Below are positions 3,614 through 48,601 of a stretch of DNA of 64,000 bases, piece by piece. Within the stretch, counting starts at the first letter, position 1; each line of letters starts with the position of its first letter. The translations under genes were made by a program, and so were the position numbers. The DNA is from Carnobacterium sp. (GTDB taxonomy: Bacteria > Bacillota > Bacilli > Lactobacillales > Carnobacteriaceae), in the NCBI RefSeq assembly GCF_040274945.1, contig NZ_JBEMAR010000003.1, forward strand, positions 88,994 through 152,993, given 5' to 3'. Under the pieces are notes generated by a model. That model did not search any database, had not been told where the DNA came from, and saw nothing but the letters and a program-made list of their open reading frames with translations.

Positions 3614-3856
3614 AAGCTTTCCTTTCTTTTATTTAGTTTTTTTTAATATAACATACTTTCAATAACACTAAAATCAAGTTTATCAGTATCTTATTTTCTA
3701 TAAAGCCAGAATCTAAGTATAGCTTTACTTAGAATCATGTCATTCTGACCTTTTAATGTTTAAAATAAAGTTTCAACAGTTCTTTAGCACTGATGGTTGA
3801 GGTATAATAAATTAAAGAATTGTTCCTCAAAAACATACCTACGGAGGGTCTTTAAT

Positions 3857-4696
3857 ATGAGACAAAATGACGAAGAAACGCTCAATGATTTATATAATTT
3901 GATCCTCAATCCTGCTACTCGGGACTGGGAACGGTCATCATTATTGTCGACCAAAAACGCCTTAGAAGAAGGTGGAAGTATTGGCGACCAATTTTCAAAG
4001 CTTGAAGCTAAATTACGTCCACTCGCATTAAGAAACAACTTAACGCCTGATGTGACGGATTTTTATAACAGTATAACTGGAAATGCTAGCTCCAACGCTC
4101 AATTTGATTTTGCGAAACATTCCATTGATGATCTGACTTACCAAGATTCTGCGGTATTTGCAGGCGGCTGTTTCTGGTGTATGGTAGAACCTTTTGAAAC
4201 CCGAAATGGAATCATTTCAGTCTTATCGGGTTACACCGGAGGGCATATGAACCATCCCACTTACGACCAAGTGAGTGGCCAGTATACAGGGCATGTCGAA
4301 GCGGTTGAGATTATTTTTGATACACGGATCATACAGTATAAAGACTTGGTGGAGCTTTATTGGCAGCTGACTGATCCCACTGATGCGTTTGGACAATTTC
4401 AAGACCGAGGCAGTCAGTACCGCCCGATTATTTTTGTTCGAAATGAAGAACAACGGAAAATTACTGAAAAGTCAAAACAGCGATTAATAGAATCCGGCAA
4501 ATACAAGCGTCCAATCGTTACATTAATTGAGCCAACATCTGTATTTTGGCCGGCAGAAAACTTCCACCAGCAATTTTATAAGAAAAATCGAAAAAGATAC
4601 AAAAGGATTGAGCGGTCCCGTCAACAATTTTTAGCATTCCAACATTTGCAAGGTAAAATCCGGACAGAGCTTAATCATTTTACACGAAAACATTAA
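3857..4696 (+). CDS. msrA: Peptide methionine sulfoxide reductase MsrA with an N-terminal extra helical domain
   Basis: [29 protein letters not shown]. Start moved to ATG 3857 (GGAGG at 3843-3847). About 95 extra N-terminal residues. Confidence 0.9.
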
Positions 4697-4878: not shown

Positions 4879-5472
4879 GTGTTGGAAACAATTTTAAGTT
4901 TATACGTTACATTAATGTCAGTGATTTTTGCAGGTGTTGCCAATATGGTATTTTGTAAATACCCTACTTATCAATGTTTAAATATCCCAATGGATGCCGG
5001 TAGGATATTAGCAGACGGCAAGCGATTGTTTGGTCAAAACAAAACTTGGAAAGGCTTTATTGGCATGATTCTTTTTGGCGGACTCTCTCAAATGATCTGG
5101 GGACTCATTCTAAAAACTAGCCCTTCTCTTGAATCGCTGAATCTCTTCTATGACGTCTATGCAAATTCTATCCTAAACAATCTTTGGATTGGTTTTTTAT
5201 TAGGGTTAGCTTATGTCGTTTTTGAATTGCCCAATAGTTTTATGAAACGACGGCTAGAAATAAAACCTGGTAAACCAGCAAACAATCAATGGAAATGGTT
5301 CTTTATTTTTATTGATCAAGCAGATTCATTGCTAGGTTGTGCTCTAGTTGTAGCCGTTTTGGTTCCAATAAGTTTGGCTCAATTTTTCGAGTTTATCCTT
5401 TTGGGAGCTGGTACTCATGTCGTAGTCAATCAATTATTGTATTGGTTTAAATTAAGAAAAAATCCATTCTAA
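4879..5472 (+). CDS. CDP-archaeol synthase (CarS/DUF46)-like membrane cytidylyltransferase
   Basis: PMDAGRILADGKRLFGQNKTWKG, PNSFMKRRLEIKPG and IDQADS match CarS-like motifs; multiple TM segments. Confidence 0.75.
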   Translation: MLETILSLYVTLMSVIFAGVANMVFCKYPTYQCLNIPMDAGRILADGKRLFGQNKTWKGFIGMILFGGLSQMIWGLILKTSPSLESLNLFYDVYANSILNNLWIGFLLGLAYVVFELPNSFMKRRLEIKPGKPANNQWKWFFIFIDQADSLLGCALVVAVLVPISLAQFFEFILLGAGTHVVVNQLLYWFKLRKNPF

Positions 5473-5504
5473 TTATTTTAGATGTACAAAGAGGTGTATA
5501 GAAA

Positions 5505-8027
5505 ATTTATTGGACTTTAATAGAAACTGCAGAAACAAATCTGCGGTATGGCGGTAAAATAAACGCGTTGATCAATTTGTCTCAGTTAGGCCTTCAGGTA
5601 CCTAAAGGCTATTTCATTTCAGAAGATAAACTCACTTCACTATGGACTGAAGCAATCCCAGAACTAGTAGGATTAGAAACAACCGTTCATCCTAATCTGC
5701 CAACTTATGAAACGATTGTTCAACGCTTGGATCAGCTGAGTTTCCCAGCGGAATTAAATGCAGAAATAAGTGATCTGATATCTCTTAATAAAACCTATAT
5801 TGTGCGAAGCAGTGGCTTGATGGAAGACCAAGCATCTACTTCTTTTGCTGGACAATACGACACAATTGCAAACTGCACGACGACTGACGACATTATTGCT
5901 GCATTAAAACAATGTATCGCGTCTCTTTTTAAGCCAGCTGCCATAACTTATTGGCAGACGCATCAGTTGGACGTTCAAAATCTAAGAATGTCTGTCATTA
6001 TTCAAGAACAAGTTTCAGCAGTGTCCAGTGGTATTTCGTTTACTCTCAATCCTTTGACAAATAATGATCGTCAATTAACCCTTGAAGTAGTGAAGGGCGC
6101 AGGTGAACAGCTTGTTAGTGGATTGGTTACTCCTGAACAATTAACGATTGATTGGTTTTCAACAATCGGACCAACAAATTGCTCAAAAATTTTATCTTCA
6201 GGTCAGTTAAAGCAGCTTCAAGAACAGTTGCTTTTGATTGCGACCTTTTATGGCTATCCTGTCGATGTGGAATTTTGTTTCAGCAAAGATTCCTTATTCT
6301 TCTTACAAGCTCGCCCGATCACAACGATTCGCCGAAAAATCAATGAAGGCAATTGGACAACAACGAATTTTCGTGATGGCGGTGTCGCTGCGCAGCCTTG
6401 TCCAGGATTGATGTGGAGTTTATACCGCGAATCATGGCAGACTACGTTAGAAAAATTCTTGATTCAAAACAAGTTATACGATTCAACAAACATCAACCAG
6501 CTATCTATCAATCATTTTGCAAGACCTTATTGGAATATTGGGGTTGTAAAAGAAGCCATGTCACGGATACCTGGCTATATTGAACGCGAATTTGATGACG
6601 AGCTTGGCGTGTATAAAAATTATCAAGGAGATGGCTATAAAAGCAAGCTGACAGTTAAGACGCTCAGCCATTTACTAACTGTGGCGACTCGTATCACTAA
6701 AACGACTCAGCAACAGCGTCAAACAGCAGCACAGCAACACAAACAACTATTAGAAACGTATCAATCAATCGATAAAAAAATCCAATCGCTATCTTCCGCG
6801 ACAGATCAGCATAAAATTGAAGCGTTATGGGAAACTATCATTAACGATGCTTATTTGCAAAGTGAACAGACTTATTTCTGGCAAGTCTATGTCAATACGG
6901 TGCAGCTTTCAATGAAAAAAACCGCCTTATTGAAAAAATTGCCTTTAGATACTTTTTTTCAGCTTATCTCAAAATTAGGTGCAGTCTCACATATCCAACC
7001 GCTACGTGATCTGTATGAGATCGTTGATATTATCTTGGCAAACGATAAATTCAAGCAGGAATGGATGACAAACAGTCCAGTAGACATCAATACGCTGCTA
7101 ACCAAACAACCCCATCGTCTAGATGCGCAGCGGATTAAAGCTTTTCAAGCAATATTTGGCTATCATTCAAATCGTGAATTGAATTTATTGGTGCCAAGTT
7201 ATAGCGAAGACCAGCAGCTAGTTGTTGATCTGTTGAAAGACTATGTGGATCATCCAGAGAAACTCAAGGCAGCTCAACACTCCTTCTCACAAATACAGAC
7301 AGAAGAACAAATGGGAAAACTAATTGAACCCTATGTCTCTAAATGGCAACGTACTAAAGTAATGAAGGATATCAAGATGCTGCGTGACTTATTATGGTGG
7401 CGTGAAGAATTTAAAGATGTATCAACTCGTTTTTATCATTTGATTCGTCAAATCACTTTGAAATTAGGCGAAAGGTATTCCCAACTAGGGTATATTGATC
7501 AAACAGAAGACCTCTTCTATCTTGAAAAAGAAACGATACACTCTTTTATTACTAACCAACTTTCTCAAGAAAGTCTTCAAAAATCCGTACAAGACAATCG
7601 TATGTATTGTCAGGCTTATCGCCACTTTGTTCCTCCAGGAGATTTAATGGAGACAAGTATTTCCCCAGAGATGGAAAATCTTTTGGTAGATACTCCATCC
7701 AGTTTATCTGGAATCGGTGCTAACGATGGAATTGTTTCTGGAAAAGTAAGAATCCTGCTAGACCCTAAAGACATCCATCAGTTGCAAGCTGGCGAAATCT
7801 TGGTGACTCGTTTTACAGATACAGGTTGGAGTCACGCTTTTGGTTCCATTGAGGGTCTGATTACAGAAACTGGCGGTGTTTTATGCCATGCCTCAATTGT
7901 TGCCAGAGAATTCGGGATTCCAACGATCGTCTGTGCAACACACGCTACTGAAAACTTAAAAACAGGTATGACCGTTACAATGAATGGAACCACGGGTGAC
8001 ATTACAATTCAAAAAGGTGGATGCTAA
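5505..8027 (+). CDS. PEP-synthase/rifampin-phosphotransferase-like dikinase A (ATP-grasp, central domain, C-terminal phospho-His domain)
   Basis: YGGK..L..L...G..VP, VRSSGLMED..STSFAGQY, DVEF, LQARPIT, and C-terminal TDTGW and GGVLCHASIVAREFGIP. The reading frame is open from 5502. The ORF track starts at TTG 5568; the probable start is ATT 5505. Confidence 0.85.
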   Translation: MYWTLIETAETNLRYGGKINALINLSQLGLQVPKGYFISEDKLTSLWTEAIPELVGLETTVHPNLPTYETIVQRLDQLSFPAELNAEISDLISLNKTYIVRSSGLMEDQASTSFAGQYDTIANCTTTDDIIAALKQCIASLFKPAAITYWQTHQLDVQNLRMSVIIQEQVSAVSSGISFTLNPLTNNDRQLTLEVVKGAGEQLVSGLVTPEQLTIDWFSTIGPTNCSKILSSGQLKQLQEQLLLIATFYGYPVDVEFCFSKDSLFFLQARPITTIRRKINEGNWTTTNFRDGGVAAQPCPGLMWSLYRESWQTTLEKFLIQNKLYDSTNINQLSINHFARPYWNIGVVKEAMSRIPGYIEREFDDELGVYKNYQGDGYKSKLTVKTLSHLLTVATRITKTTQQQRQTAAQQHKQLLETYQSIDKKIQSLSSATDQHKIEALWETIINDAYLQSEQTYFWQVYVNTVQLSMKKTALLKKLPLDTFFQLISKLGAVSHIQPLRDLYEIVDIILANDKFKQEWMTNSPVDINTLLTKQPHRLDAQRIKAFQAIFGYHSNRELNLLVPSYSEDQQLVVDLLKDYVDHPEKLKAAQHSFSQIQTEEQMGKLIEPYVSKWQRTKVMKDIKMLRDLLWWREEFKDVSTRFYHLIRQITLKLGERYSQLGYIDQTEDLFYLEKETIHSFITNQLSQESLQKSVQDNRMYCQAYRHFVPPGDLMETSISPEMENLLVDTPSSLSGIGANDGIVSGKVRILLDPKDIHQLQAGEILVTRFTDTGWSHAFGSIEGLITETGGVLCHASIVAREFGIPTIVCATHATENLKTGMTVTMNGTTGDITIQKGGC

Positions 8028-8638
8028 AAATGTTTATTGGAGAATATGGAAAATTTATCTATTTAACTTACTTTGGGACAGCCCTGTCGTTAGTAGCGAT
8101 GCATTTTATCATTCAAGGTGAAATGATCTGGGCGATGAGCTGCTTTATTGTGAGCGGACTTTGTGATTTATTTGATGGCATGGTTGCGCGTTCTTTTGAA
8201 AGAACAAAAGCGCAAGAACAATTTGGTGTGGAGATCGATACCCTTTGCGATATGATCAGTTTTGCGGCATTGCCCGCAGTTTTATTGATCGCACAAGGCC
8301 GGTTTCCTTTAATGAACATTTTTTTAGCTATTATTTATGTCATCACTGCGGTTACAAGACTGGCTTATTTCAATCGTGAAACGAAAGAAAATTTAGCAGA
8401 AAGAGCTACTTATTTCCGGGGAGTTCCGGTTACCTATGGTGCACTTGTTTTTCCGGTCGGTTACTTGGTAAGTGAAGGATTTTCAAGTGGCAGTTTTCAA
8501 TCTGTTCTTCTACTGCTTGCTCCTATAATGGCTTTTCTATTCATCTGGGACATTAAGATTCCTAAACCCAATCGTGTAATGTACCTCTTTTTCCTAGGAC
8601 TAGCGCTTGTAACGTTGTTCGGATTATGGAGATTGTAG
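8021..8638 (+). CDS. CDP-alcohol phosphatidyltransferase (PssA-like)
   Basis: Signature CDLFDGMVAR...FGVEIDTLCD and RLAYFN...FRGVP. Confidence 0.85.
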   Translation: MLKMFIGEYGKFIYLTYFGTALSLVAMHFIIQGEMIWAMSCFIVSGLCDLFDGMVARSFERTKAQEQFGVEIDTLCDMISFAALPAVLLIAQGRFPLMNIFLAIIYVITAVTRLAYFNRETKENLAERATYFRGVPVTYGALVFPVGYLVSEGFSSGSFQSVLLLLAPIMAFLFIWDIKIPKPNRVMYLFFLGLALVTLFGLWRL

Positions 8639-8639
8639 T

Positions 8640-9506
8640 ATGCCAAAAGTCTATCAACGTGAAACGAAATCGATTACTGAACCTAAGGAATATCAAGCAG
8701 CATGGTTAAAACGATTGTATTTAACAAAGTGGGGAAACATTTTGCTTTTCGTAGTCACTTCCCCATTCTTTTCCATCGTATGGACGGCTATTGACCATAC
8801 CCGATTTTCTAAAAATAAAGTTGCTCGGTTCACCAAAGAGTACGGTATCAACATAAACGATTACGAATCTGCAAACTATAGATCTTTTGCAGCATTCTTT
8901 ATCCGCAAATTAAAAGCGGCAAACATTCAAGTAAGTCCGTCTTATCGCGTTTGCGCTGTTGCGCAAGCGAAACTATTAGTCGTCCCCATTCAGAGTGATC
9001 AGACCTTTGCCATCAAAGGGCAGAATTATCGTTTAGAAGACATTCTTCAAGACCGTTCTTCAGCTGATTATTACGAAGGCGGAACCTTATTTATTTATCG
9101 CTTAGCGGTCGATGATTATCATCGTTATTTATCAAGTGAAACAGGCACGGTTATTCATCGACGTAAAATCCGCGGAAAACTGCATACGGTCAGAGAAATC
9201 GCGCAACAACACTTTCAATTATTCAAAGAAAATAAAAGAGAGTATTGTCTAATCGAAACAAAGAAATTGGGAACGATCATGCAGATGGAAGTCGGAGCAC
9301 TTTTGGTTGGCAAGATTTATAATCAACCATTCAATAATTATCAGCGAGGGAAAGAAAAAGGTTGGTTTAGCCTGGGAGGTTCAACCATACTAGTAGCTTA
9401 TCCAAAAGACAAGATAAATGTTGATCCAGATATTCACCATTATTCTAGTCTAAATATAGAAACACAAGTCAACATAGGGGAAGGAATTGGTCTGAAAACA
9501 TGTTAA
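8640..9506 (+). CDS. psd: Phosphatidylserine decarboxylase proenzyme family
   Basis: FFIRKLK, RLAVDDYHRY, EVGALLVGKI, RGKEKGWFSLGGST (self-cleavage GST). Confidence 0.85.
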   Translation: MPKVYQRETKSITEPKEYQAAWLKRLYLTKWGNILLFVVTSPFFSIVWTAIDHTRFSKNKVARFTKEYGININDYESANYRSFAAFFIRKLKAANIQVSPSYRVCAVAQAKLLVVPIQSDQTFAIKGQNYRLEDILQDRSSADYYEGGTLFIYRLAVDDYHRYLSSETGTVIHRRKIRGKLHTVREIAQQHFQLFKENKREYCLIETKKLGTIMQMEVGALLVGKIYNQPFNNYQRGKEKGWFSLGGSTILVAYPKDKINVDPDIHHYSSLNIETQVNIGEGIGLKTC

Positions 9507-10405
9507 CCAGATTATTAACTTATTATAAAGAGATGTACCCACTGATTCCGCGATTACTATTAGCGATCATCTACTTTTTTGAAATCTACTTTATCTTACT
9601 CCTCAACGTAGGAAAGTCAGATTTTTCAATAGGAATACAAGAATGGACCGGAGTTTGGACAATATTTACTTTTTTGATGGCACTTAGGATCGCAGATGAT
9701 TTTAAAGACTACGAACACGATCAACGACTATTTCCAGATCGGGCATTGCCTTCTGGGAGAGTTAAGAAACGTGATTTAGCTATTGCTTTAGCTGTCATGG
9801 TCACGATCACTGTTGTGCTCAATGTCTTCTTTATGAATAATATAGGCTGGTTTCTCTTTTTATTCATTTATGGAACCTTGATGTCGCTGTGGTTTTTCAG
9901 CAAAGTCAAAATTCAAAAATCATTGCCTTTAGCACTGGTTACCCATAATCCTGTGATGATGGTCATGAATATCTATATCATCACATTCGTTTGTTACAAA
10001 TATCAATTGCCATTGCTGTCATTACCTACTGTCCTGCTGGCATTTACGATGTATTTCCCAAGCTTGATATGGGAAATCAGCCGTAAAATAAGAGCACCCA
10101 AAGACGAGACAGAATATGTGACTTATTCTCAACTCTTCACTTATCAAAAAGCCACACGTTTCGTTCAAGTGCTGACAATCATTGATATTTTAACGAATTT
10201 TATTCTTCTTTGGAATATTTCAAAAATCGGTGTTGTTGTTCTATTGGCAAATGTCATCTGGATGACGATTCAATTTCAACAGTTCATTCATGATCCGACT
10301 CGTTTCAGTATCAAAGATCGAGTGGAACGCTATACCTATATTACAGAAACAACGATGGTTCTTTCGGTTGCAGCTCATCTATTTATCCAGGGGTTTGTCC
10401 GATGA
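9500..10405 (+). CDS. UbiA-prenyltransferase-like membrane protein
   Basis: Asp-rich RIADDFKDYEHD...PDRALPSG motif and about 8 TM segments. Confidence 0.75.
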   Translation: MLTRLLTYYKEMYPLIPRLLLAIIYFFEIYFILLLNVGKSDFSIGIQEWTGVWTIFTFLMALRIADDFKDYEHDQRLFPDRALPSGRVKKRDLAIALAVMVTITVVLNVFFMNNIGWFLFLFIYGTLMSLWFFSKVKIQKSLPLALVTHNPVMMVMNIYIITFVCYKYQLPLLSLPTVLLAFTMYFPSLIWEISRKIRAPKDETEYVTYSQLFTYQKATRFVQVLTIIDILTNFILLWNISKIGVVVLLANVIWMTIQFQQFIHDPTRFSIKDRVERYTYITETTMVLSVAAHLFIQGFVR

Positions 10406-12903
10406 AACAACTCACTCACTTAAGTCGTCATTTAGTAGGTTCAAAAGCGTATAATTTACATCTAATGAAAAAGCAGGGTCTCGTTGTTCCTCCTTTTTCA
10501 GTTTTTTCGTTTGATCTCTTTGATCAAACAGATGTACATACCTTCTTGAAGGAACAACAAGCAGCAGATCAAACAGGAAACGATACATTGAATAAATTGA
10601 GTCAACGATTGCAGCAGGAGTTTAAGGCGAAATTTTTGCAAGAGGATTTTTCAGCTATCCATGAATTTAGCAGGAACGCTTCTGACAACCATACTTACTC
10701 TGTACGCTCTTCAGCAAACGTTGAAGATGAGGCCTCTGCCTCATTCGCAGGACAATTCTCTACGCGTTTGTTTGTTGAAGCGAACGATTTAGTTGAAGCT
10801 GTAGAAGAAACTCTTTTGTCGTTGTATCAGCCCTCTGCACTGAGTTACTACTTGGAACAGGGCATTTCGTTAGAAGCTGTTAAATTATACGTCATTCTCC
10901 AAGATATGATTGCGGGAGATCTATCTGGGGTCTATTTTACTGCAAATCCTCAAGGGTTGTTGAACGAACACTTAATTGTTGTCGGCTTTGGCGTTGGCAG
11001 CGGCATTGTGGAAGATAAAGTGGATACAACGATGGTTACGATCCATTCGGATGATCAATTGTCTTACTTTGAAACATCTGGTGCGTCTCCAACCTTAACA
11101 GAGAAACAACAAGTAGATTTAGAAGCCATGGCGAAAAAAGCCACCGATATTTTTGGTCCGCGAATGGATATCGAATTTACATTTTTAGATGACCAACTCT
11201 ATGTTTTACAAGCAAGACCTATCACAAAAATGCCTACAGAACCGGTCATTATTTTAGACAACAGCAATATTGTGGAGAGTTATCCCGGAACAACGACTCC
11301 TTTGACTTTTAGTTTTATTCAAGAAGCCTATGGGAGTATTTTTAGAGGTCTGGCCAAACGCATGCTGAAAAATGATACACAGACACTTCAATCATTTGAG
11401 CCCACTTTTCAAAATATGATCGCTCAAGTCAATAGCCGGGTCTATTATCAAATCACTAATTGGTACAAATTACTTCATCTTCTGCCCTTTTCTAAGCAGA
11501 TCATCCCTATTTGGCAAGATATGTTAGGTGTTCAAGCCACCGATATCTCTGCAATTACAGTAAAAATCAGTCGCTCAACTCGACTGAAAATCATGGGACG
11601 CATCATTAAGAGTTTCATCCAAGCGCCTCGTTCAATGAAACAACTCGATTCGGATTTTGAAGCGATTTCTGAACATTTCAATCAAACGTATACGCGAGAG
11701 GCTTCATTTGAAGAACTTCATCAATTATTTGAGCAGATCAAACGACAAGTATTGGAACAATGGGATGTCACTTTGATCAATGATCTCTATGCGTTTGTTT
11801 ATACTGGGCTGTTAAAAAAAGTCTGTCCGCCTGAAGAAGTTCAAGAGGAAATAGCCGGGATCGAACAAATTGAAAGTATGAAGCCAGTGTTTGAACTTAA
11901 TAAAATCATTTATACCATTCAGGAAGAACAACATAGCGACTATCGAAAAATAATTGAAAGCATTTCTTCGGAACTTGCAGCTGATTTTATTGAGACAGAT
12001 TTGCATCCAATCACACAAGATATCCGACGTTTCATTCAACAATTTGGAGATCGAGCTCCAGAAGAATTAAAATTAGAGACGGCAACCTTTCGTAGTCATC
12101 CTTTTTCATTAATTCAACTGATCCAACAGCAATTGGAATTGCCGCAAACAGCGATGCGTACCGAATCTAAAGCAACGGCAACAAACAAATCACGGAATCC
12201 ATTGGTGAATGGGCTGAAGAAACGCGCTATGACAGGGATCAAATACAGAGAAAGTTCTCGCTTGAATCGTACGCGAATTTACGGAATGATGCGACTCATC
12301 TTTATCACTATGGGCGAGCAGTTGGTAAAAGAAAACCGTCTTGAGCAATCAGAGGATGTGTTTTATTTAACGATGACTGAACTTTTCGATTTGGCTAGCC
12401 ATAGAGATCTTTCAAATATGCAAACAGAGATACAAAAACGGAAGCATAAACGATTAGTAGATCAGCAATTACCTGCATTCAGCCGGTTGATCTATGCTGG
12501 AAGTATTTTCGAAAAATATCCACAAACGATCAATCAGCAGCAGACAGTCTCGACCAACCAGCAGGACTTCCAAGGAATCGGTTGTTCAAAAGGCATAGTT
12601 CGAGGGCAAGTTTTAGTTGTCGAAGATATTCAAGCCGTTAATGTTCAGCAATCCTATAATAAAATTATCGTCACAAAAATGACGGATCCAGGATGGGTGT
12701 ATTTACTGACCCAAGCAAAAGGGATCATTGCGGAAAAAGGCTCGTTATTATCTCATACAGCAATCATCTCTCGCGAATTAGGTATTCCTTCTGTCGTCAA
12801 TGTCCAACAAGCCACACAACAACTAACGACTGGAGAATGGATTGAAATAAACGGACAGACCGGCCTGATCAAACGTTTGGAGGATGAAAATGATTACTCA
12901 TAA
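10402..12903 (+). CDS. PEP-synthase/rifampin-phosphotransferase-like dikinase B
   Basis: VGSKAYNL, VRSSANVED..SASFAGQF, DIEF, LQARPIT, NIVESYPG, TDPGW, GSLLSHTAIISRELGIP. Confidence 0.85.
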   Translation: MKQLTHLSRHLVGSKAYNLHLMKKQGLVVPPFSVFSFDLFDQTDVHTFLKEQQAADQTGNDTLNKLSQRLQQEFKAKFLQEDFSAIHEFSRNASDNHTYSVRSSANVEDEASASFAGQFSTRLFVEANDLVEAVEETLLSLYQPSALSYYLEQGISLEAVKLYVILQDMIAGDLSGVYFTANPQGLLNEHLIVVGFGVGSGIVEDKVDTTMVTIHSDDQLSYFETSGASPTLTEKQQVDLEAMAKKATDIFGPRMDIEFTFLDDQLYVLQARPITKMPTEPVIILDNSNIVESYPGTTTPLTFSFIQEAYGSIFRGLAKRMLKNDTQTLQSFEPTFQNMIAQVNSRVYYQITNWYKLLHLLPFSKQIIPIWQDMLGVQATDISAITVKISRSTRLKIMGRIIKSFIQAPRSMKQLDSDFEAISEHFNQTYTREASFEELHQLFEQIKRQVLEQWDVTLINDLYAFVYTGLLKKVCPPEEVQEEIAGIEQIESMKPVFELNKIIYTIQEEQHSDYRKIIESISSELAADFIETDLHPITQDIRRFIQQFGDRAPEELKLETATFRSHPFSLIQLIQQQLELPQTAMRTESKATATNKSRNPLVNGLKKRAMTGIKYRESSRLNRTRIYGMMRLIFITMGEQLVKENRLEQSEDVFYLTMTELFDLASHRDLSNMQTEIQKRKHKRLVDQQLPAFSRLIYAGSIFEKYPQTINQQQTVSTNQQDFQGIGCSKGIVRGQVLVVEDIQAVNVQQSYNKIIVTKMTDPGWVYLLTQAKGIIAEKGSLLSHTAIISRELGIPSVVNVQQATQQLTTGEWIEINGQTGLIKRLEDENDYS

Positions 12904-13975
12904 TTCTTTAAAAATCATTCCAGTGTTTTCAGGTGAAAAATCAGAAACCGATTTCCTGCAATTCCCACAACGAATTTATAAAAAAGAGGAATTGATGCAA
13001 TCCGTCTCAGAGGAACAAGCACAGATCAGTGGACAGCATCCGTTGAGTCCAACCTATACTTTCCAAGCATTCAATGGTTACCAAGAGGGTCAAATGGTAA
13101 TTCGCGGGGCTCTAATAAAACCGCATCACTTGGAAGACTATTACTTAGGGTATTTTGAAGCAGTAGATGATGTAACCGTCATGATTCAGTTTATCCAAAC
13201 ACTGAGTGAAAAAGTACGAGACAAAAATGTGCAGCGCATCATTGGTCCTGTTCAAGGAAGTTTCTGGCTAGGCTATCGAATGAAAGTTAAAGGATTTGAA
13301 CGAGCACCATTTACGAGTGAACCGCACAATCCATCGTATTATCCGAAGTTATGGCAAGCGGCCGGTTTTAAAGAGGTCGAACACTACACGTCAAATTTTT
13401 ATCGTTCGATTCCACCTCAATATGAATCAAAAAAACTAGCCAAACGTTATCATTTATTTGTGGAAAAAGGTTATCGTTTTGTTTCTCCTAAACCAGAAGA
13501 TTGGCCAACCGTTTCGCTTGAAGTCTTTAAACTTTTAAGAGTACTCTACAAAGACTTTCCATTGTATCAAGAGGTTACAGCTGAACAATTCAGTCAAATT
13601 TTTGCCGATTTAAAACAAGTGATCGATTTTTCTATGGTGAAGTTGGCCTATAAAGATCAGCAGCTCGTTGGCTTTTTGATTACTTTGCCGGATTATGGCA
13701 ATTTGATTTATCAAAAAATGAATCTACTAAATCTAGCGAAAATTATCTATAAAAAATGGCGTGCTAAACGTTATATCATTCTGTATTTAGGTGTAGACTC
13801 TAAGCATCTGGGTTTGGGATTGGCGATGTCCTATCCGGTTTTCAAACAGGTAAAACAACGCAAAGCAGAAGTAGTTGCTGCATTGATCCATGAAAATACG
13901 GTAACAAACCGATATGTGACAGAGATGCAGGAAGATTCTCATGCTTACAGCTTATGGATGCTGGAATTAAAGTAA
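12890..13975 (+). CDS. GNAT-fold (YghO-like) protein
   Basis: IIGP, PFTSEPHNPSYYPKLWQAAGF, YLGVDSKHLGLG (motif A-like). Start at ATG 12890 with GGAGG 6 nt upstream. Confidence 0.6.
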   Translation: MITHNSLKIIPVFSGEKSETDFLQFPQRIYKKEELMQSVSEEQAQISGQHPLSPTYTFQAFNGYQEGQMVIRGALIKPHHLEDYYLGYFEAVDDVTVMIQFIQTLSEKVRDKNVQRIIGPVQGSFWLGYRMKVKGFERAPFTSEPHNPSYYPKLWQAAGFKEVEHYTSNFYRSIPPQYESKKLAKRYHLFVEKGYRFVSPKPEDWPTVSLEVFKLLRVLYKDFPLYQEVTAEQFSQIFADLKQVIDFSMVKLAYKDQQLVGFLITLPDYGNLIYQKMNLLNLAKIIYKKWRAKRYIILYLGVDSKHLGLGLAMSYPVFKQVKQRKAEVVAALIHENTVTNRYVTEMQEDSHAYSLWMLELK

Positions 13976-42012: not shown

Positions 42013-43506
42013 TTATCCCACTACTGTGCTTTCCCACTGAACGGCATCTTTTGAACGGACACGTAAAGCTTCAGAATTCCCATTTGCTTTTTCCACTGCA
42101 TCTGCCACTCCATCAATTAGGCTTTTTGAGGTCATCGTTGCTCCTGAGATAACATCCACTTGCAACGTTTGCCCGCTGATTATTTCCTCCGGTAACCGCT
42201 TGAAAACGGAAGTTGCAACGGCATCTGGCTGCTCTTGGCCGTCCAATTCTATTGCCAAAATTTTAGTATCCGAGAAGGTTACTTTCATCAGGATACCACT
42301 CCCATCATGACCTTCAACAGAAGCTTCATAGGTTCCAGGATTGAAAGTAATTTTTGTATTTTGCAATTCTTTCAAATATTCATATTTTTCTTCTTCTGCT
42401 TTCACATCTTTAATCATGAAATCCATCACGTCCCATAAAGGTTCAGGGATCTGTAACCGATCTTGTTCGTTGATGTCTGCAAAGTCTTTGATTTCTTCAT
42501 CAGATTTTGTTTTTTCAACCCAATTCGGTTCGACCAAAAAGGCTTTCCCGACCGCAACTAGATCATAGCCCGCTTCAAGTGCAGCTTCCGCATCGCTGCG
42601 TTGACCAATTCCCCCTACACCGATAAGAGCAATTTGAGCTAACTCTTCCGATTGTTGCTCGATATACTTCTCTAGTAGTGGCTGACTGTCTTCTTTATCT
42701 ATGATTGATGTTCGGTTCCAACTGCCCATTGAAACATGGAAGTAATCCGGCTTTAATTTAGCTAAGCGGTTCAATAAGTACATCGTATCTTCAAATCGAA
42801 TCCCTGGTTCTTCAATTTCTTCCGGAGAGAATCGGTAACCTACAATGAAATGTTCTGCTTGCTGTTTCTTGACTTCTTCTTGCACAGCTTTCATCACGGC
42901 TTCCGGAAATTTAGCGCGTGCTTCTCGGCTGCCGCCCCATTTGTCTTCACGGCGGTTAGAATGAGGAGAGAAAAATTGTTGAATCAAGTATGTATTGGCA
43001 CCATGAATTTCAACTCCATCAAATCCAGCTTCAATCGCGCGTCTGGTAGCATCTGCAAAACTTTGAATCATTCTATCAATATCCACTGGCATCATTTGTC
43101 GCGGTGTAACAGCTTCCGGTCTCAATGCTGCCACAGGACTAGCTGAGATTGGCGCAGCTCCACCATTGAGTTCTGGAGCAGCCATCCGTCCGGCATGATA
43201 AATTTGTAAAATAGCTTTAGATCCTTTTTCTTTAATCGCACGAGCTAGTTTACGCAATTCTTTCACTTGAGAATCTTTATTGTTCCCTAAAGCCCCGGCA
43301 AATCCTCGACCTTTATCTTCCACAAATGAACTCTCCACAATAATTGCGCCAGCTTCTCCAGAACGATGGGCATAATAATCAATCATTTCTTGTGTGACCG
43401 TTCCATCAAAATAGGCTGCTTGAATCGTCATTGGTGCCATCATGATACGATTTTTTAATAGTACTCCCGATTTAAGTTCCATTTCCTCAAATAGTTTTTT
43501 TAACAT
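42013..43506 (-). CDS. Old-yellow-enzyme-type NADH:flavin oxidoreductase fused to an FMN-bind domain, probably C-terminally truncated
   Basis: NRIMMAPMT, QIYHAGR, EIHGANTYLIQQF, FMN-bind motif DVISGATMTS. Start at ATG 43506. Confidence 0.85.
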   Translation of the reverse strand: MLKKLFEEMELKSGVLLKNRIMMAPMTIQAAYFDGTVTQEMIDYYAHRSGEAGAIIVESSFVEDKGRGFAGALGNNKDSQVKELRKLARAIKEKGSKAILQIYHAGRMAAPELNGGAAPISASPVAALRPEAVTPRQMMPVDIDRMIQSFADATRRAIEAGFDGVEIHGANTYLIQQFFSPHSNRREDKWGGSREARAKFPEAVMKAVQEEVKKQQAEHFIVGYRFSPEEIEEPGIRFEDTMYLLNRLAKLKPDYFHVSMGSWNRTSIIDKEDSQPLLEKYIEQQSEELAQIALIGVGGIGQRSDAEAALEAGYDLVAVGKAFLVEPNWVEKTKSDEEIKDFADINEQDRLQIPEPLWDVMDFMIKDVKAEEEKYEYLKELQNTKITFNPGTYEASVEGHDGSGILMKVTFSDTKILAIELDGQEQPDAVATSVFKRLPEEIISGQTLQVDVISGATMTSKSLIDGVADAVEKANGNSEALRVRSKDAVQWESTVVG

Positions 43507-43548
43507 GTTGGTAGTCCTTTCCAGCAATTTAATGTATGTATTTTTTCT

Positions 43549-43938
43549 TCATTCATTTTTAAGTTGATCTTTACGATTTGGAATAACGAATACTAGTGCT
43601 ATCGTTAAACCAATGGTCAAAAACACTAGCATGACTTTAACTAGTTGAAACGGCGCAAAATATATTGAAATGCCCATCAGAATATAACTATTAACGAGTA
43701 TTTTCCATTTTTTATTTTTAGGAATAGATTTCGTTTCAGCGTAATCTGATACGTATAGATGATACAATTTAGTCTTTTTTAGCCAATCATTAAACTTGTT
43801 GGAACTGTGTGCAAAACAGTAGCCAGATAACAATAAAAAAGGTGTGGTTGGCAGCACGGGTAAAATTGCACCTGCTGAACCCAAAAGAAAAGAAAGAATC
43901 CCAACACTAATTAAAAAATGGCGTTTCATCTGCATCAT
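43549..43938 (-). CDS. YbaN/DUF454 membrane protein
   Basis: GAILPVLPTTPFLLLSGYCFAHSS. The true start may be ATG 43929. Confidence 0.9.
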   Translation of the reverse strand: MMQMKRHFLISVGILSFLLGSAGAILPVLPTTPFLLLSGYCFAHSSNKFNDWLKKTKLYHLYVSDYAETKSIPKNKKWKILVNSYILMGISIYFAPFQLVKVMLVFLTIGLTIALVFVIPNRKDQLKNE

Positions 43939-43982: not shown

Positions 43983-45068
43983 TCAATTCCATTTTTCGCG
44001 GGCAAACGGATTCGGTTCAGCTGGATTACTAAATTCACCACGGCGGGTCGGTTCATCGATTGTCTCAATAAAGGGCGTTCCATTTTGGACGTATTCCATG
44101 AACCCAATACTTTCACCTCTGCGATTAAAAACAGGAACATAAGAAATGAAAATTTTACGACCGTCATCTTTTCGTGTGAACCAATGCGTTTCGCTCTTGC
44201 GTGTCCCATCTGCCAGTTCTCCAGCTAATTTCCCAACAAATTCGCGCACATGAGGCGGATGACAATCAATAAAGTGGCTTCCTAAACTCGCTTGGGAACG
44301 GTGAAACTCATGATGATCTTCATTGAAATATTGAAAGCGTAAATCCGGCCCAACAAACGTAATTTCAACTGGTAGCGCATTCAAAACAGCTTCAATTTGT
44401 TCAATGGTTAGGGATCCTCCTTTAAACTGGATACGCGGTTCTAAGTCTTCTAACTTTGGTTCAGCTTCCGGATCAATCTCACCTCTAGCTACACCTAAAG
44501 CATAATCCAATGCTTCTTGTGCTCCGCGTGAAGAAAAAGTTGCACCCGAGATTGTATCAACTTGAGAAGATTGACTGCGTAAAATCTTTGCAATAATGTC
44601 TTCCATCGCTTTACCACCGATATCAGGAGTCTCTTTTCCTTGGTAGTCAATTTTTTCAATCTTATTTTCACTTACTGTTACATTCAGATTAATGTCACCT
44701 TTATACCCATCTCCGTTTCCACTGTAAGTTCCAGATGTGAAATGGTGTTCAATCTTTCCTGTCTCTTCATTAAATTCACCATCAATTGGAGCACGTTCGC
44801 CCCGTGCAACTCCTAACGCATAGTCCACAGCCCGCAAAGTTCCTTCTGAAGCATATGTCGCGCCAGAAATTGTATCAACTTCTACTGATTGTCGTTTAAT
44901 GATTTCTTCTACCATTTTCGCTACGGCTATCCCGCCTTTATTAGGTGTCTCATTTTCAGAGTAATCGATTTCTACTATTTTTCCCTCATCTACTTTTACA
45001 TCCACCGTAATATAATCATGGTACCCCGTTGCTCTTCCTTTGTACGTTCCTGGTTTAAGATTATTCAT
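43983..45068 (-). CDS. Tandem FMN-bind domains fused to a C-terminal PAS domain
   Basis: Two repeats of GTY.G...G...I.V.V...KI..I....ETP..GG with DTISGATYAS and DTISGATFSS. PAS-like LNALPVEITFV...FQYFN...DCHPP. Start at ATG 45068 (AGGAGG). Confidence 0.85.
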   Translation of the reverse strand: MNNLKPGTYKGRATGYHDYITVDVKVDEGKIVEIDYSENETPNKGGIAVAKMVEEIIKRQSVEVDTISGATYASEGTLRAVDYALGVARGERAPIDGEFNEETGKIEHHFTSGTYSGNGDGYKGDINLNVTVSENKIEKIDYQGKETPDIGGKAMEDIIAKILRSQSSQVDTISGATFSSRGAQEALDYALGVARGEIDPEAEPKLEDLEPRIQFKGGSLTIEQIEAVLNALPVEITFVGPDLRFQYFNEDHHEFHRSQASLGSHFIDCHPPHVREFVGKLAGELADGTRKSETHWFTRKDDGRKIFISYVPVFNRRGESIGFMEYVQNGTPFIETIDEPTRRGEFSNPAEPNPFAREKWN

Positions 45069-45103: not shown

Positions 45104-45137
45104 TTTGTTTTTACATTGTTAGTATAAGTAGAAAAAT

Positions 45138-45173
45138 AATTAAAAAAATTGATTTAAATCAATTTTTTTAATT
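45138..45173. promoter_or_regulatory. Perfect 36-bp palindrome containing an FNR-type box
   Basis: AATTAAAAAAATTGATTT|AAATCAATTTTTTTAATT, with core TTGAT-TTAA-ATCAA at 45149-45162. Confidence 0.6.
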
Positions 45174-45271
45174 GTTTTAGAAAAAATCTCACATAATTTT
45201 TAGAGTATGTTAAAATGCAAACATATACATCGTATGGACTTCTCAACTATATCGTTAGGTGGGTGAAAAAA

Positions 45272-46201
45272 ATGAAACAGAAGATTATTAATCGAATGGG
45301 GACACAAATCAGCCTTTCCATTGTGCATCCGGAAGCAGAAAAACTATTAGAAAAAGCTAGCCACATACTGGCAGATTACGAAGCACGATTCAGCGCAAAC
45401 AATTTTAACAGTGATTTAATGACCGTGAACCAACAAGCAGGATTACAGCCTGTTCATGTCGATTCAGATTTATATGAATTAATTCAAATCGGCAAGAACT
45501 ATAGTTTGTCCTCTAATCTTGCTCTAAACATCACAATAGGACCACTCGTTAAACTATGGAAAATTGGTTTTACAGAAGCGCGTTTGCCTAAACCAAAAGA
45601 AATTGACGAACGGTTAAAGCTAATTGACCCAACTGACATTGAATTGGATACGGATAAAAGAACGGTATACTTAACAAAAAAAGGCATGGAAATCGATCTT
45701 GGCGCCTTAGCAAAGGGATATTTTGCCGATAAACTCAAAAAGTTTTTTCAACATGAAGGCGTACAAAGTGGTTTAGTGGATTTGGGTGGAAATGTGCTGA
45801 CGATTGGGGAAAATCCAAAATACGAAGATGGCTATTGGCGTGTAGGGATTCAAAAGCCTTCACTGGTTCGTGGAGATTTAGTGGGCGCTGTATTGGTAAA
45901 AAACAAGTCAGTGGTAACATCTGGCATTTATGAACGGTCGCTTAAGGTAAAAGGAAAAGACTACCACCACGTTCTTGATTCCACAACAGGTTATCCAATT
46001 GAAAATGACGTGGCCAGCGTAACCATCATTTCGGATGAATCTATTGACGGAGAAATATGGACTACCCTTTTATTTATGTTCAGTCCCACTTTGGCCATCC
46101 AATATATCGACACCATCCCTGGCATAGAAGCTCTTGTTATCACAAAAGACAACGATGTACACATGACACATGGTATCACACCGTATGTTGTTTTATTTTA
46201 A
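45272..46201 (+). CDS. apbE: FAD:protein FMN transferase ApbE (no signal peptide)
   Basis: MGTQIS, IDLGALAKGY, DLGGN, SVVTSGIYER, YHHVLDSTTGYP. Start at ATG 45272; no hydrophobic N-terminus or lipobox. Confidence 0.92.
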   Translation: MKQKIINRMGTQISLSIVHPEAEKLLEKASHILADYEARFSANNFNSDLMTVNQQAGLQPVHVDSDLYELIQIGKNYSLSSNLALNITIGPLVKLWKIGFTEARLPKPKEIDERLKLIDPTDIELDTDKRTVYLTKKGMEIDLGALAKGYFADKLKKFFQHEGVQSGLVDLGGNVLTIGENPKYEDGYWRVGIQKPSLVRGDLVGAVLVKNKSVVTSGIYERSLKVKGKDYHHVLDSTTGYPIENDVASVTIISDESIDGEIWTTLLFMFSPTLAIQYIDTIPGIEALVITKDNDVHMTHGITPYVVLF

Positions 46202-46496: not shown

Positions 46497-47075
46497 GTGC
46501 TCACTACAATCTTAGAAGACCCACTGTACTTACAATTTGCTTTTGCAGGCTGCATCGCATTAGCTATTTTGACATTACCACTAAAAGATATCATCAGTGT
46601 CGGTTTTTACGACATCAGCGATTTCTTTGTCACAGGAATGATTGCTTTTTTCATTACATATGGGGTTCTAGTGACCAACCTTGCAACAGTGTCTATTTGG
46701 TTGTTTGTGGGTGTCTTTCTTGCCGTAATGGTTGTCATTATGCTCATGAATATTCTCGTTATCCTGCCCTTTAAGAGCCGTGCAGAAAATTCAACTATTA
46801 CGTCCATCCATGAGTTAGAAGGCAAAGAAGCGACAGTATCTATTCCAATCACACTCAATGGAACAGGCGAAGTCATCGTCTCTACTGGTTTTACACGAGT
46901 GAATAAAATGGCTAAAATCTATGACAATACTGACAACATAACCGTAATTCCAAAAAATGAAAATGTATTGATCATGGATGTTAGCAACAACATTCTTTAT
47001 GTCCTTCCCTATACAAACAGCATTAAAGCCATTGGCAAACCAACGCCGACATGGAATAAGAAACCAAAAAAATAA
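46497..47075 (+). CDS. NfeD-like (YuaF-type) flotillin partner
   Basis: N-terminal TM segments and an OB-like C-terminus (LEGKEATVSIPI...GEV); directly upstream of flotillin. GTG start with AGGAGGTG. Confidence 0.75.
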   Translation: MLTTILEDPLYLQFAFAGCIALAILTLPLKDIISVGFYDISDFFVTGMIAFFITYGVLVTNLATVSIWLFVGVFLAVMVVIMLMNILVILPFKSRAENSTITSIHELEGKEATVSIPITLNGTGEVIVSTGFTRVNKMAKIYDNTDNITVIPKNENVLIMDVSNNILYVLPYTNSIKAIGKPTPTWNKKPKK

Positions 47076-47116
47076 TCCCACCATCAAAATAGATACGAGA
47101 AAGTAGGAATGTACAC

Positions 47117-48601
47117 ATGGATTCAGCATTATTTGGAACCGTTGGCGCAGTTGTCATCGCAGTCATTTTATTAGTCGCATTAGTTAGTCGTTACCGTACA
47201 GCTTCTCCAGCAGAAGCGTTAATTATCAGTGGTACAGCATTAGGCAGTAAGAACGTGTATGTAGACCCAAATACGGGCAATAAAATGAAAATCGTTAGCG
47301 GAGGCGGGACATTCGTTTGGCCAATCATTCAATCCGTTCATAAGTTGTCATTGCTGTCATCTAAACTAGACGTTCGTACACCAGAAGTGTATACCGAGGA
47401 AGGTGTTCCAGTCGCAGTTGACGGAACCGTTATTATTAAAATTGGATCTACATCAGAAGATATCGCAACAGCCGCTGAACAATACCTTGGTAAATCAACG
47501 GAACAATTAGAAAGCGAAGCGAAAGAAGTTCTAGAAGGACATTTGCGTTCAATTTTAGGTCGCATGACTGTTGAAGATATTTATCAAAATCGTGATAAAT
47601 TCAACCAAAACGTTCAAGATGAAGCATCTGGCGATTTAGCTAAAATGGGATTGGTTATTTTATCTTTTACAGTAAAAGAAGTAACGGACAGAAACGGTTA
47701 CCTAGACTCATTGGGCCAAGGTCGTATTGCTGAAGTGAAACGAGATGCGGATATTAAAACAGCAAATGCAGATAAAGAAACACGCATTCAACGAGCATTA
47801 GCTGAACAACTGTCTCAAGAAGCGGAATTGCAACGCCAAACAGAGATTGCGCAAGCTGAAAAAGTAAAAAGTCTACGTGTATCTGAATACGGAAGAGAAC
47901 AAAATATCGCTAAAGCCGAAGCTGAAAGTGCGTATGACTTAAAGAAAGCTGAATTAAGAAAACAAGTTATCATTGAAGAGGGTAACGCTCAAATTATTGA
48001 ACGTGAAAAACAAATCGAATTGCAAGAAAAAGAAACCATTAAGCAAGAACGCGAATACGATGCAACTGTCCGTAAGAAAGCTGATGCTGAACGTTACTCT
48101 GTTGAACAACGTGCGGAAGCCGATAAAAACAAAGCCATTGCTGAATCTGAAGCGAGAGCCAAAGAAATCGAATTAAACGGTATGGCTCAAGCCGAAAGTA
48201 TTCGTTTAATCGGTCAAGCTGAAGCAGACAGTAAGACAGCATGGGCGGAAGCCTTGAAAGAATACGGTGATGAAGCTATTGCAACCTTACTGATCGAAGC
48301 TTACCCTGCAATTGTTCGTGCTGCTGCTGAACCATTGAGTAACATTGACAAAATTACGGTTGTAGACAGCGGAAACGGAAATGGCACATCAGCCATTACC
48401 AAAACAGCCTTAAACACACTGGCAGCTTCTCAAGAAGCATTTAAAGATGCAACAGGATTAGACATCAATAATTTAATCAGTTCATTTGCGGGAACAAAGA
48501 ATGTGGGTCGTCAAATCAGCAATTTGAACGAAACATTCGCTCAAACAGCAGTCGTGGCTGAAGAACCCATCACCACAGACGATGCACAAAAAATCATTTA
48601 A
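47117..48601 (+). CDS. Flotillin (FloT/YuaG-like SPFH protein)
   Basis: GGGTFVWPIIQ, AAEQYLGK, LEGHLRSILG.MTVEDI, AEA/EA coiled-coil repeats. Confidence 0.92.
   Translation: MDSALFGTVGAVVIAVILLVALVSRYRTASPAEALIISGTALGSKNVYVDPNTGNKMKIVSGGGTFVWPIIQSVHKLSLLSSKLDVRTPEVYTEEGVPVAVDGTVIIKIGSTSEDIATAAEQYLGKSTEQLESEAKEVLEGHLRSILGRMTVEDIYQNRDKFNQNVQDEASGDLAKMGLVILSFTVKEVTDRNGYLDSLGQGRIAEVKRDADIKTANADKETRIQRALAEQLSQEAELQRQTEIAQAEKVKSLRVSEYGREQNIAKAEAESAYDLKKAELRKQVIIEEGNAQIIEREKQIELQEKETIKQEREYDATVRKKADAERYSVEQRAEADKNKAIAESEARAKEIELNGMAQAESIRLIGQAEADSKTAWAEALKEYGDEAIATLLIEAYPAIVRAAAEPLSNIDKITVVDSGNGNGTSAITKTALNTLAASQEAFKDATGLDINNLISSFAGTKNVGRQISNLNETFAQTAVVAEEPITTDDAQKII

Follow-up and report, generated by a model that had tools for sequence, protein, structure and literature searches.

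What is the likely role of a protein that joins two predicted covalent-flavin domains to a PAS domain and contains no recognizable output domain? This question is raised by a gene located at positions 43983-45068 (reverse strand) of a stretch of 64,000 nucleotides (nt) from Carnobacterium sp. (contig NZ_JBEMAR010000003.1, positions 88,994 to 152,993; hereinafter, the window), which encodes a protein of 361 amino acids (aa) with two domains of the FMN_bind family, named for flavin mononucleotide (FMN), followed by a PAS_10 domain. A preliminary description had labeled this protein a candidate redox sensor. We propose instead, with a probability of about 0.42, that it is a cytoplasmic electron-transfer protein that ends a relay fed by NAD(P)H. 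The evidence comes from the domain content and motifs of the protein and its operon partners, their cytoplasmic location, the conservation of the operon, purifying selection, the rarity of the architecture and the fact that PAS_10 is associated exclusively with redox modules.

Domain architecture of the 361-aa protein

The open reading frame (ORF) starts with an ATG located 6 nt past a GGAGG ribosome-binding site, the ORFs on the opposite strand over this gene are short shadows, and the product is 88% identical to its counterpart in C. jeotgali. A Pfam search detected FMN_bind in two stretches (E-value 1.5e-28; 99.7 bits against a cut-off of 22) and PAS_10 at residues 226-329 (3e-14; 54 bits against a threshold of 22.1), which identifies the protein as a bona fide member of both families. 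No Pfam domain was found beyond the two copies of FMN_bind and PAS_10, and hence no output domain; among the NCBIfam profiles, only RnfG/NqrC matched, far below the threshold and via the FMN_bind parts. These results, together with the motif search, bear out the central observation of the preliminary description, namely, two FMN_bind domains and a PAS domain with a DCHPP motif in the absence of a kinase, helix-turn-helix (HTH) or catalytic output domain.

The first FMN_bind domain (approximately residues 6-90; 44799-45053, on the reverse strand like all features of this gene) matches the crystal structure 8P2B (domain 1 of CbFMN4) both in sequence (E-value 1.3e-10) and in fold (template modeling (TM) score of 0.9). 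The second domain (approximately residues 113-195; 44484-44732) was delineated from the best Pfam stretch (121-191) and a pairwise BLASTP comparison, in which the two domains align without gaps and are 49% identical and 67% similar. By this alignment they qualify as clear tandem paralogs; the term 'near-duplicate' in the preliminary description overstated their similarity. Both domains contain the motif DTISGAT (D65-T71, 44856-44876, and D171-T177, 44538-44558), which conforms exactly to the consensus Dxx[ST]GA[ST] for flavinylation by ApbE (PMC12052999, PMC11334425), with T71 as the predicted FMN-phosphoester site.

The PAS_10 domain (approximately residues 210-335; 44064-44441) contains the DCHPP motif (D268-P272; 44253-44267) and is followed by a C-terminal extension (residues 336-361; 43986-44063) with a subfamily-specific motif, R343..P349..P352-N353-P354..E358. 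The extension is modeled with low confidence and is probably flexible; the protein's C-terminal end (...NPFAREKWN) contains no Ser/Thr flavinylation motif. The N-terminus, MNNLKPGTYKGRATGYHDY, has no hydrophobic leader, and neither a signal peptide nor a transmembrane segment was detected in the protein, which places it in the cytoplasm.

The operon, its flavin transferase and the intergenic palindrome

The gene for the 361-aa protein is the first in an operon on the reverse strand. It is followed, after 44 nt, by a gene for a small membrane protein of the DUF454/YbaN family (43549-43938; Pfam DUF454, 5e-32), which occupies the same position in C. jeotgali and in another genome, G007. After approximately 21 nt comes the third gene (42013-43527), which encodes a 504-aa protein that combines an NAD(P)H:flavin oxidoreductase domain similar to old yellow enzyme (OYE; Pfam Oxidored_FMN, 4.2e-78) with a single FMN_bind domain (1.1e-8). 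The OYE domain possesses the active-site motif HGANTY, and the solved structures closest to it are those of xenobiotic and alkene reductases. The FMN_bind domain of this protein carries the motif DVISGAT (D458-T464; 42136-42156); all three FMN_bind domains of the locus, then, have exact consensus motifs. Divergently from the operon, a gene at 45272-46201 (forward strand) encodes a flavin transferase, ApbE (Pfam ApbE, 9.6e-79), which has neither a signal peptide nor a lipobox and so is assigned to the cytoplasm. Given the motifs and the presence of ApbE in the same compartment, the 361-aa protein is predicted to bind FMN covalently at both of its FMN_bind domains. The Rfam search detected no family between positions 41000 and 49800, and PADLOC returned no defense-system match for the four proteins of the locus.

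The 2.63-Mb genome encodes two ApbE proteins, and no FMN_bind domain in it exceeds the Pfam threshold other than the three of this locus. The second ApbE (FmnB) is a lipoprotein with the lipobox LIGC, encoded on the same contig about 93 kb away, outside the window (locus L010; G000:C3:226000-231500). This is an extracellular-electron-transfer locus of the Listeria type, which also encodes a UbiA/DmkA-like prenyltransferase, a type-II NADH dehydrogenase and a 161-aa PplA-like lipoprotein with the sequence VSGATHS and an FMN_bind score (20.2 bits) just below the Pfam cut-off. These features suggest a division of labor, with the lipoprotein ApbE serving the cell surface and the signal-less ApbE serving the two cytoplasmic proteins of the operon. 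That an ApbE of the cytoplasm can serve soluble clients is established for Klebsiella and Vibrio (PMC12052999; Vibrio Crd preprint).

The region between the divergent genes contains a 46-nt palindrome (45133-45178, without strand assignment; 96% self-complementary) with a Crp/Fnr-type box, TTGATTTAAATCAA, at its center (45149-45162). The core of the palindrome and its A/T flanks are kept in C. jeotgali (locus L004) and in a metagenomic locus, L003, which encodes a PAS_10 protein 72% identical to that in the window, while the surrounding DNA has diverged; Crp/Fnr-family regulators are encoded in the genome. Located between the two promoters, the palindrome is probably the site through which a regulator of this family controls expression. 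A Rex-like half-match, TTGTGAAATGAATAACAA, located just upstream of the ribosome-binding site, is kept in C. jeotgali but not in L003. On the other side of apbE, directly downstream (46497-48601, forward strand), are genes for a 192-aa membrane protein without a Pfam match and a 494-aa flotillin (Band_7 and Flot domains), a pair that follows apbE in C. jeotgali as well.

Conservation, selection and rarity

The gene array consisting of apbE and the divergent FMN_bind x2-PAS_10, DUF454 and OYE-FMN_bind genes is complete in 7 of the 26 species genomes of Carnobacteriaceae. In these seven, the genes for the FMN_bind x2-PAS_10 and OYE-FMN_bind proteins are always about 2 kb apart, with the DUF454 gene between them in every case; the other 19 genomes have neither of the two flavoprotein genes. 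In L003, apbE adjoins the gene for the PAS_10 protein, and the OYE gene (the N-terminus of the product is 74% identical) lies on the other side of apbE, so that the OYE-ApbE partnership survives rearrangement. Neither L003 nor any of the loci outside Carnobacterium contains a DUF454 gene.

The ratio of nonsynonymous to synonymous substitution rates (dN/dS), measured against C. jeotgali, is 0.077 for the whole FMN_bind x2-PAS_10 protein (0.06-0.12 for its individual domains) and 0.068 for the OYE-FMN_bind protein, with a range of 0.05-0.13 over all domains, showing that both genes are functional and subject to purifying selection. Two other interpretations of the OYE-FMN_bind gene were considered and rejected. 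It is not a pseudogene in G007, where an uninterrupted ORF of 499 aa is present and the apparent stops fall past its natural end; nor is it a decaying relic of a reductase of about 1000 aa, given the low dN/dS and the conserved length (499-510 aa in the window, C. jeotgali and G007, and uninterrupted frames of 516-528 aa in the other four genomes).

An exhaustive HMMER search with the PAS region among 1.84 billion representatives at 50% identity revealed 865 PAS_10 relatives, with only about six clusters that also contain FMN_bind, all from Carnobacterium, a Carnobacteriaceae metagenome-assembled genome (MAG), Aerococcus and Hutsoniella. A scan of 241 million JGI metagenome records yielded one contig with this architecture and no new context, a word-indexed homolog search with the PAS region returned family members only, and a third homolog search, with a 131-sequence alignment as the query, produced only 15 matches. 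Our literature search identified no paper linking flavinylation with PAS_10 and none describing the FMN_bind x2-PAS_10 architecture. The preliminary description had considered this architecture to be unusual, which agrees with these results; by the same searches, it is also uncharacterized.

In the relatives outside Carnobacterium, FMN_bind is present in two or three copies and PAS_10 is followed by a long tail of low complexity; Hutsoniella sourekii and Aerococcus sp. Group 2 encode two such paralogs apiece. In H. sourekii, Aerococcus spp. and the Carnobacteriaceae MAG (loci L001 and L005-L009), the tails include repeated D[ST]xS[SG]A[ST] motifs, one of which aligns in all these relatives (DSMSSPT, DSVTQAT or DTSSSAT); these repeats resemble degenerate ApbE flavin-tag sites that lie outside any FMN_bind fold. 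Genes for the relatives outside Carnobacterium often adjoin a TetR gene. In one of the H. sourekii loci (L007, 3260-8474), a suf-like Fe-S assembly operon, sufCDSUB (identified from N-terminal sequence only), is located directly upstream of an AmiS/UreI-TetR-FMN_bind x3-PAS_10 array. Genes for AmiS/UreI are found near the homologs in L008 and L001 as well, perhaps by coincidence.

The PAS_10 domain: partners, fold and conserved core

The partners of PAS_10 were counted among its 131 nearest representatives. Hemerythrin is present in 75 and DUF438 in 51 of these, in accord with the link to hemerythrin/DUF438 proteins that had been stated in the preliminary description; DUF1858 is found in 11 and FMN_bind in 4, many copies stand alone, and none is linked to a kinase, GGDEF, MCP or HTH domain. 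PAS_10 recurrently occurs beside one-electron redox modules and, at least twice, beside ApbE-tethered FMN.

Among the solved structures, PAS_10 of the 361-aa protein shows significant sequence similarity to 2QKP (5.4e-20), the C-terminal domain of SMU_1151c from Streptococcus mutans, and to 3CAX (1.9e-18), PF0695 from Pyrococcus furiosus with the DUF438-hemerythrin-PAS_10 architecture, both of which are unpublished structural-genomics entries. The PAS region was poorly predicted in the full-length AlphaFold2 (AF2) model, with a predicted local distance difference test (pLDDT) score of about 40-60, and this model was replaced with a PAS-only one, built from a 22-row alignment spanning three architecture classes. 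The PAS-only model reached a pLDDT of 82.6 and was matched by Foldseek to 2QKP and 3CAX with TM scores of 0.83-0.85.

Across the three classes, in which PAS_10 is linked, respectively, to hemerythrin, to an NAD(P)H-FMN-reductase-like domain (FMN_red) and to FMN_bind, the residues G218, P233, F238, R257, C269, H270, P271, Y310, G322 and E325 are near-invariant. The 361-aa protein has this complete set, and the polar core (R257, C269, H270, Y310 and E325) is the same in all three classes. In the AF2 model, the Cys-His-Pro sequence is positioned where the short helix of the PAS fold meets the long one, which is the usual cofactor site of PAS domains and the region that contains the heme histidines of the FixL type and the LOV cysteines. 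Heme is unlikely to be a general cofactor of PAS_10 because this domain is present in organisms that are not known to make heme, namely, Pyrococcus, Thermotoga-type anaerobes, Aerococcus and streptococci.

In a domain tree with 175 tips, both the FMN_bind-linked (support 0.99) and the FMN_red-linked (support 1.0) PAS_10 domains are monophyletic, and both groups belong to one subtree of 51 tips; this topology fits either one or two origins of the link between PAS_10 and flavinylation. PG_0686 of Porphyromonas gingivalis (hemerythrin, PAS_10 and DUF1858), the only published PAS_10 protein found in our literature search, is induced by oxidative stress and has been reported to be an unconventional diguanylate cyclase, an activity that was not mapped to the PAS_10 domain (PMC10101095). 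Thermus DrpB, which consists of DUF1858 and DUF2249, proved not to be relevant.

Comparison with known flavinylation and PAS_10 systems

PAS_10 is encoded in 169 of 301 sampled Lactobacillales genomes as well as in many anaerobes and archaea. Many of the Lactobacillales copies are proteins of 413-433 aa with an N-terminal FMN_red-like domain, PAS_10 and a tail with three tandem motifs (e.g., DAVSGASEK). Four of six enlarged loci contain an operon that encodes a signal-less ApbE, then a short FMN reductase and then the FMN_red-PAS_10 protein. These are the fusions of flavin reductase with PAS near apbE in lactic acid bacteria to which the preliminary description had alluded. The signal-less ApbE of the window is 45-54% identical to those encoded in the FMN_red-PAS_10 operons, compared to only 29-37% for the lipoprotein ApbE of the same genome. 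For those FMN_red proteins of Lactococcus that are associated with ApbE, flavinylation at the C-terminal motifs has been shown experimentally, in a study that does not discuss PAS_10 (PMC11334425). In L019-L034, a set of loci from other Lactobacillales, the operons also encode an Rgg-like regulator, the tails contain three DxxSGAS/SSAS motifs, and the PAS_10 motif appears as CHPE, CHPP, CHPA and, once, VHPE, which implies that the histidine is more conserved than the cysteine.

The FMN_red proteins of Lactococcus lactis and L. taiwanensis (Huang, Meheust, Barquera, Light 2024 mSystems; PMC11334425) and the long forms from L019-L034 share with the Carnobacterium system the signal-less ApbE clade, an NAD(P)H flavoenzyme partner, the PAS_10 core, covalently tethered FMN (predicted in Carnobacterium) and the restriction to Lactobacillales. 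In Carnobacterium, the flavin sites are in two folded FMN_bind domains N-terminal to PAS_10 rather than in a disordered C-terminal tail, the 361-aa protein has no tail motif, and the NAD(P)H module resides on a separate polypeptide and is an OYE rather than FMN_red (PF03358), for which the Pfam search found no match in the 361-aa protein or in the rest of the operon. These comparisons indicate that the Carnobacterium system is one variant of a broader set in lactic acid bacteria, in which a signal-less ApbE and a flavin reductase dependent on NAD(P)H are combined with PAS_10 and tethered FMN.

The second group of related systems includes cytoplasmic NADH-dependent reductases that consist of OYE-like, FMN_bind and FAD_binding_2 domains, namely, the soluble fumarate reductase of Klebsiella pneumoniae, the acrylate reductase of Vibrio harveyi and the cinnamate reductase Crd of Vibrio ruber (Bertsova, Bogachev et al.). 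In these enzymes, NADH reduces the OYE-like flavin, from which electrons pass to the covalent FMN and then to the FAD site that reduces fumarate, acrylate or cinnamate (Crd preprint). An OYE-like domain followed by an FMN_bind domain with a predicted ApbE flavinylation site, with a cytoplasmic ApbE, is a feature of the operon partner at 42013-43527 and not of the 361-aa protein. Outside the clade, its nearest relatives across the OYE/FMN_bind junction are ORFs of 976-1011 aa (47-48% identity to the operon partner), a length that fits the three-domain reductases, leaving room for a further C-terminal domain. Unlike in those enzymes, FAD_binding_2 is missing from the proteins of the locus, no full-length FAD_binding_2 protein was found in the genome, and a separate FMN_bind x2-PAS_10 protein is present in its place.

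The DUF438-hemerythrin-PAS_10 protein (3CAX), SMU_1151c (2QKP) and PG_0686 share with the 361-aa protein the PAS_10 fold, the CHPP core, the placement of PAS_10 C-terminal to a redox-cofactor module and the absence of any signaling output; however, the module of the hemerythrin-PAS_10 proteins is a non-heme di-iron one, as opposed to covalent-flavin domains. Listeria PplA, CbFMN4 and SaFMN3 (8P2B/8P2A; Tong et al. 2023) share the tandem FMN_bind domains with the ApbE motif. Proteins of the PplA type are secreted or lipid-anchored and function in extracellular electron transfer, whereas the 361-aa protein has no signal peptide, is accompanied by a cytoplasmic ApbE and ends in PAS_10. By its domain content, then, the 361-aa protein is outside the OYE-FMN_bind-FAD_binding_2 reductases, the flavinylated FMN_red proteins and the extracytosolic multi-flavinylated proteins. 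The system as a whole appears to belong among the cytoplasmic ApbE-dependent flavoprotein systems, with an architecture that itself seems to be new. By analogy, the 361-aa protein probably works in the same way as the OYE-FMN_bind-FAD_binding_2 reductases and the flavinylated FMN_red proteins.

A tentative model of the relay and its alternatives

Because the operon includes an NAD(P)H:flavin oxidoreductase and a dedicated cytoplasmic ApbE, it has the appearance of an electron-transfer pathway rather than that of a signaling device. Under the model that we propose, the signal-less ApbE would attach FMN covalently to T71 and T177 of the 361-aa protein as well as to T464 of its OYE-FMN_bind partner. 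NAD(P)H would be oxidized by the OYE domain, and electrons would pass singly from the FMN of this domain, via the three tethered FMNs, to PAS_10, the pocket of which (R257, C269-H270-P271-P272, Y310 and E325) would hold the final acceptor, for which a bound cofactor, a metal and a small substrate are candidates. PAS_10 would thereby take the place of the FAD_binding_2 reductase domain of the OYE-FMN_bind relatives, and a Crp/Fnr-family regulator bound to the palindrome would set the expression of the system. The coupling of the flavins to a PAS-bound cofactor, which was already suggested in the preliminary description, is plausible, and the conserved polar core could provide for it.

Several observations weigh against this model. 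The partnership is not universal: outside Carnobacterium, the genes for the FMN_bind-PAS_10 relatives adjoin neither an OYE gene nor apbE. With its ene-reductase motif fully retained, the OYE domain could itself be the terminal reductase. No cofactor or ligand has been described for any PAS_10 domain. PAS folds typically are sensors, and the next Foldseek neighbors after 2QKP and 3CAX, with TM scores of about 0.5, are heme, FAD and LOV sensor PAS domains.

These last points lead to the interpretation favored in the preliminary description, that of a redox sensor, in which the state of the covalent FMN, set by the NAD(P)H/NAD(P)+ ratio via OYE-FMN_bind or by O2, shifts the conformation of PAS_10 and its binding to a partner, for instance, DUF454, the OYE protein or a regulator. 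It is compatible with the PAS fold, with the absence of a recognizable catalytic domain in the 361-aa protein and with the conserved, flexible C-terminal motif (R343..PNPF..E358), which could serve as a docking peptide; the oxidative-stress response of PG_0686 (PMC10101095) points in the same direction. The PAS fold, then, is the part of the sensor label that holds. A signaling output, in contrast, was found neither in the protein nor in the operon nor in the 131 nearest PAS_10 representatives, and no conserved regulator gene adjoins the operon in Carnobacterium. Furthermore, three covalent flavins with a dedicated transferase would be a heavy investment for a sensor, and the locus itself is apparently controlled from outside, via the Crp/Fnr-type box. 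On balance, we consider a sensory role unlikely.

To the same extent unlikely is the possibility that PAS_10 is involved only in dimerization or docking, and the two FMN_bind domains shuttle electrons between OYE-FMN_bind and some other acceptor, such as a quinone, an unlinked soluble enzyme or, by way of DUF454, the membrane. PAS domains commonly dimerize, and the position of the membrane protein DUF454 between the flavoprotein genes in all seven Carnobacteriaceae operons would make sense under this scenario. Proteins with multiple FMN_bind domains have indeed been proposed to function as electron wires (PMC12052999, PMC11334425). However, DUF454 does not accompany the FMN_bind-PAS_10 proteins in L003 or beyond Carnobacterium, and the invariance of Arg, Cys-His-Pro, Tyr and Glu from archaea to lactic acid bacteria, in three unrelated partner architectures, would not be expected of a purely structural domain. 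The reverse direction of electron flow, with OYE as a terminal ene- or quinone-reductase fed by FMN_bind x2-PAS_10 with electrons that PAS_10 takes from some donor, would account for the retained His/Asn/Tyr catalytic motif and the similarity to xenobiotic and alkene reductases but appears highly improbable, given that OYEs obtain hydride directly from NAD(P)H, which makes a relay unnecessary, that the OYE-like domain is the NADH-oxidizing input in V. ruber Crd and related enzymes, and that no donor chemistry has been described for PAS_10.

Other features of the window

At 4879-13975 (forward strand), the window contains an unusual lipid-type gene cluster that encodes a CarS-like protein (CDP-archaeol synthase family), two proteins of about 820 aa with PPDK_N and PEP-utilizer domains, a CDP-alcohol phosphatidyltransferase, a phosphatidylserine decarboxylase, a weakly similar UbiA-like prenyltransferase and a 363-aa protein without a Pfam match. 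Upstream of this cluster, a single ORF at 3797-4696 (forward strand) encompasses an enterocin-A-immunity domain (residues 26-93) and methionine sulfoxide reductase A (residues 119-269), which could be either a true fusion or two genes merged by the choice of the start codon.

Implications

Flavinylation by ApbE has long been viewed as an extracytosolic process, and the cytoplasmic clients of this enzyme are few and recent; the Carnobacterium operon appears to be a compact and fully cytoplasmic case. Apart from the OYE input, PAS_10 is the only non-flavin soluble module of the operon. The 361-aa protein joins PAS_10, with the same pocket, to a third kind of redox module, which leads to the testable claim that PAS_10 receives electrons from tethered carriers. 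A generalization of this claim, to which we assign a distinctly lower probability than to the relay itself and which accordingly is best regarded as doubtful, is that PAS_10 is a hitherto unrecognized redox-active acceptor domain rather than a sensor, functioning with one-electron carriers tethered to proteins, with a Cys-His/Arg/Tyr/Glu pocket that binds a metal or a small cofactor and with three interchangeable electron-input modules, namely, the di-iron site of hemerythrin, FMN_red with flavin-tagged tails, and FMN_bind domains. If this is the case, the Carnobacterium operon would represent a complete and unusually clean chain, from NAD(P)H via OYE and three covalent FMNs to PAS_10, and would be a good system for finding the substrate of this widespread domain, e.g., an oxidant or iron center encountered during oxidative or nitrosative stress. 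With the NAD(P)H input and the acceptor on separate proteins and no disordered tail, it is arguably the version that would be easiest to reconstitute.

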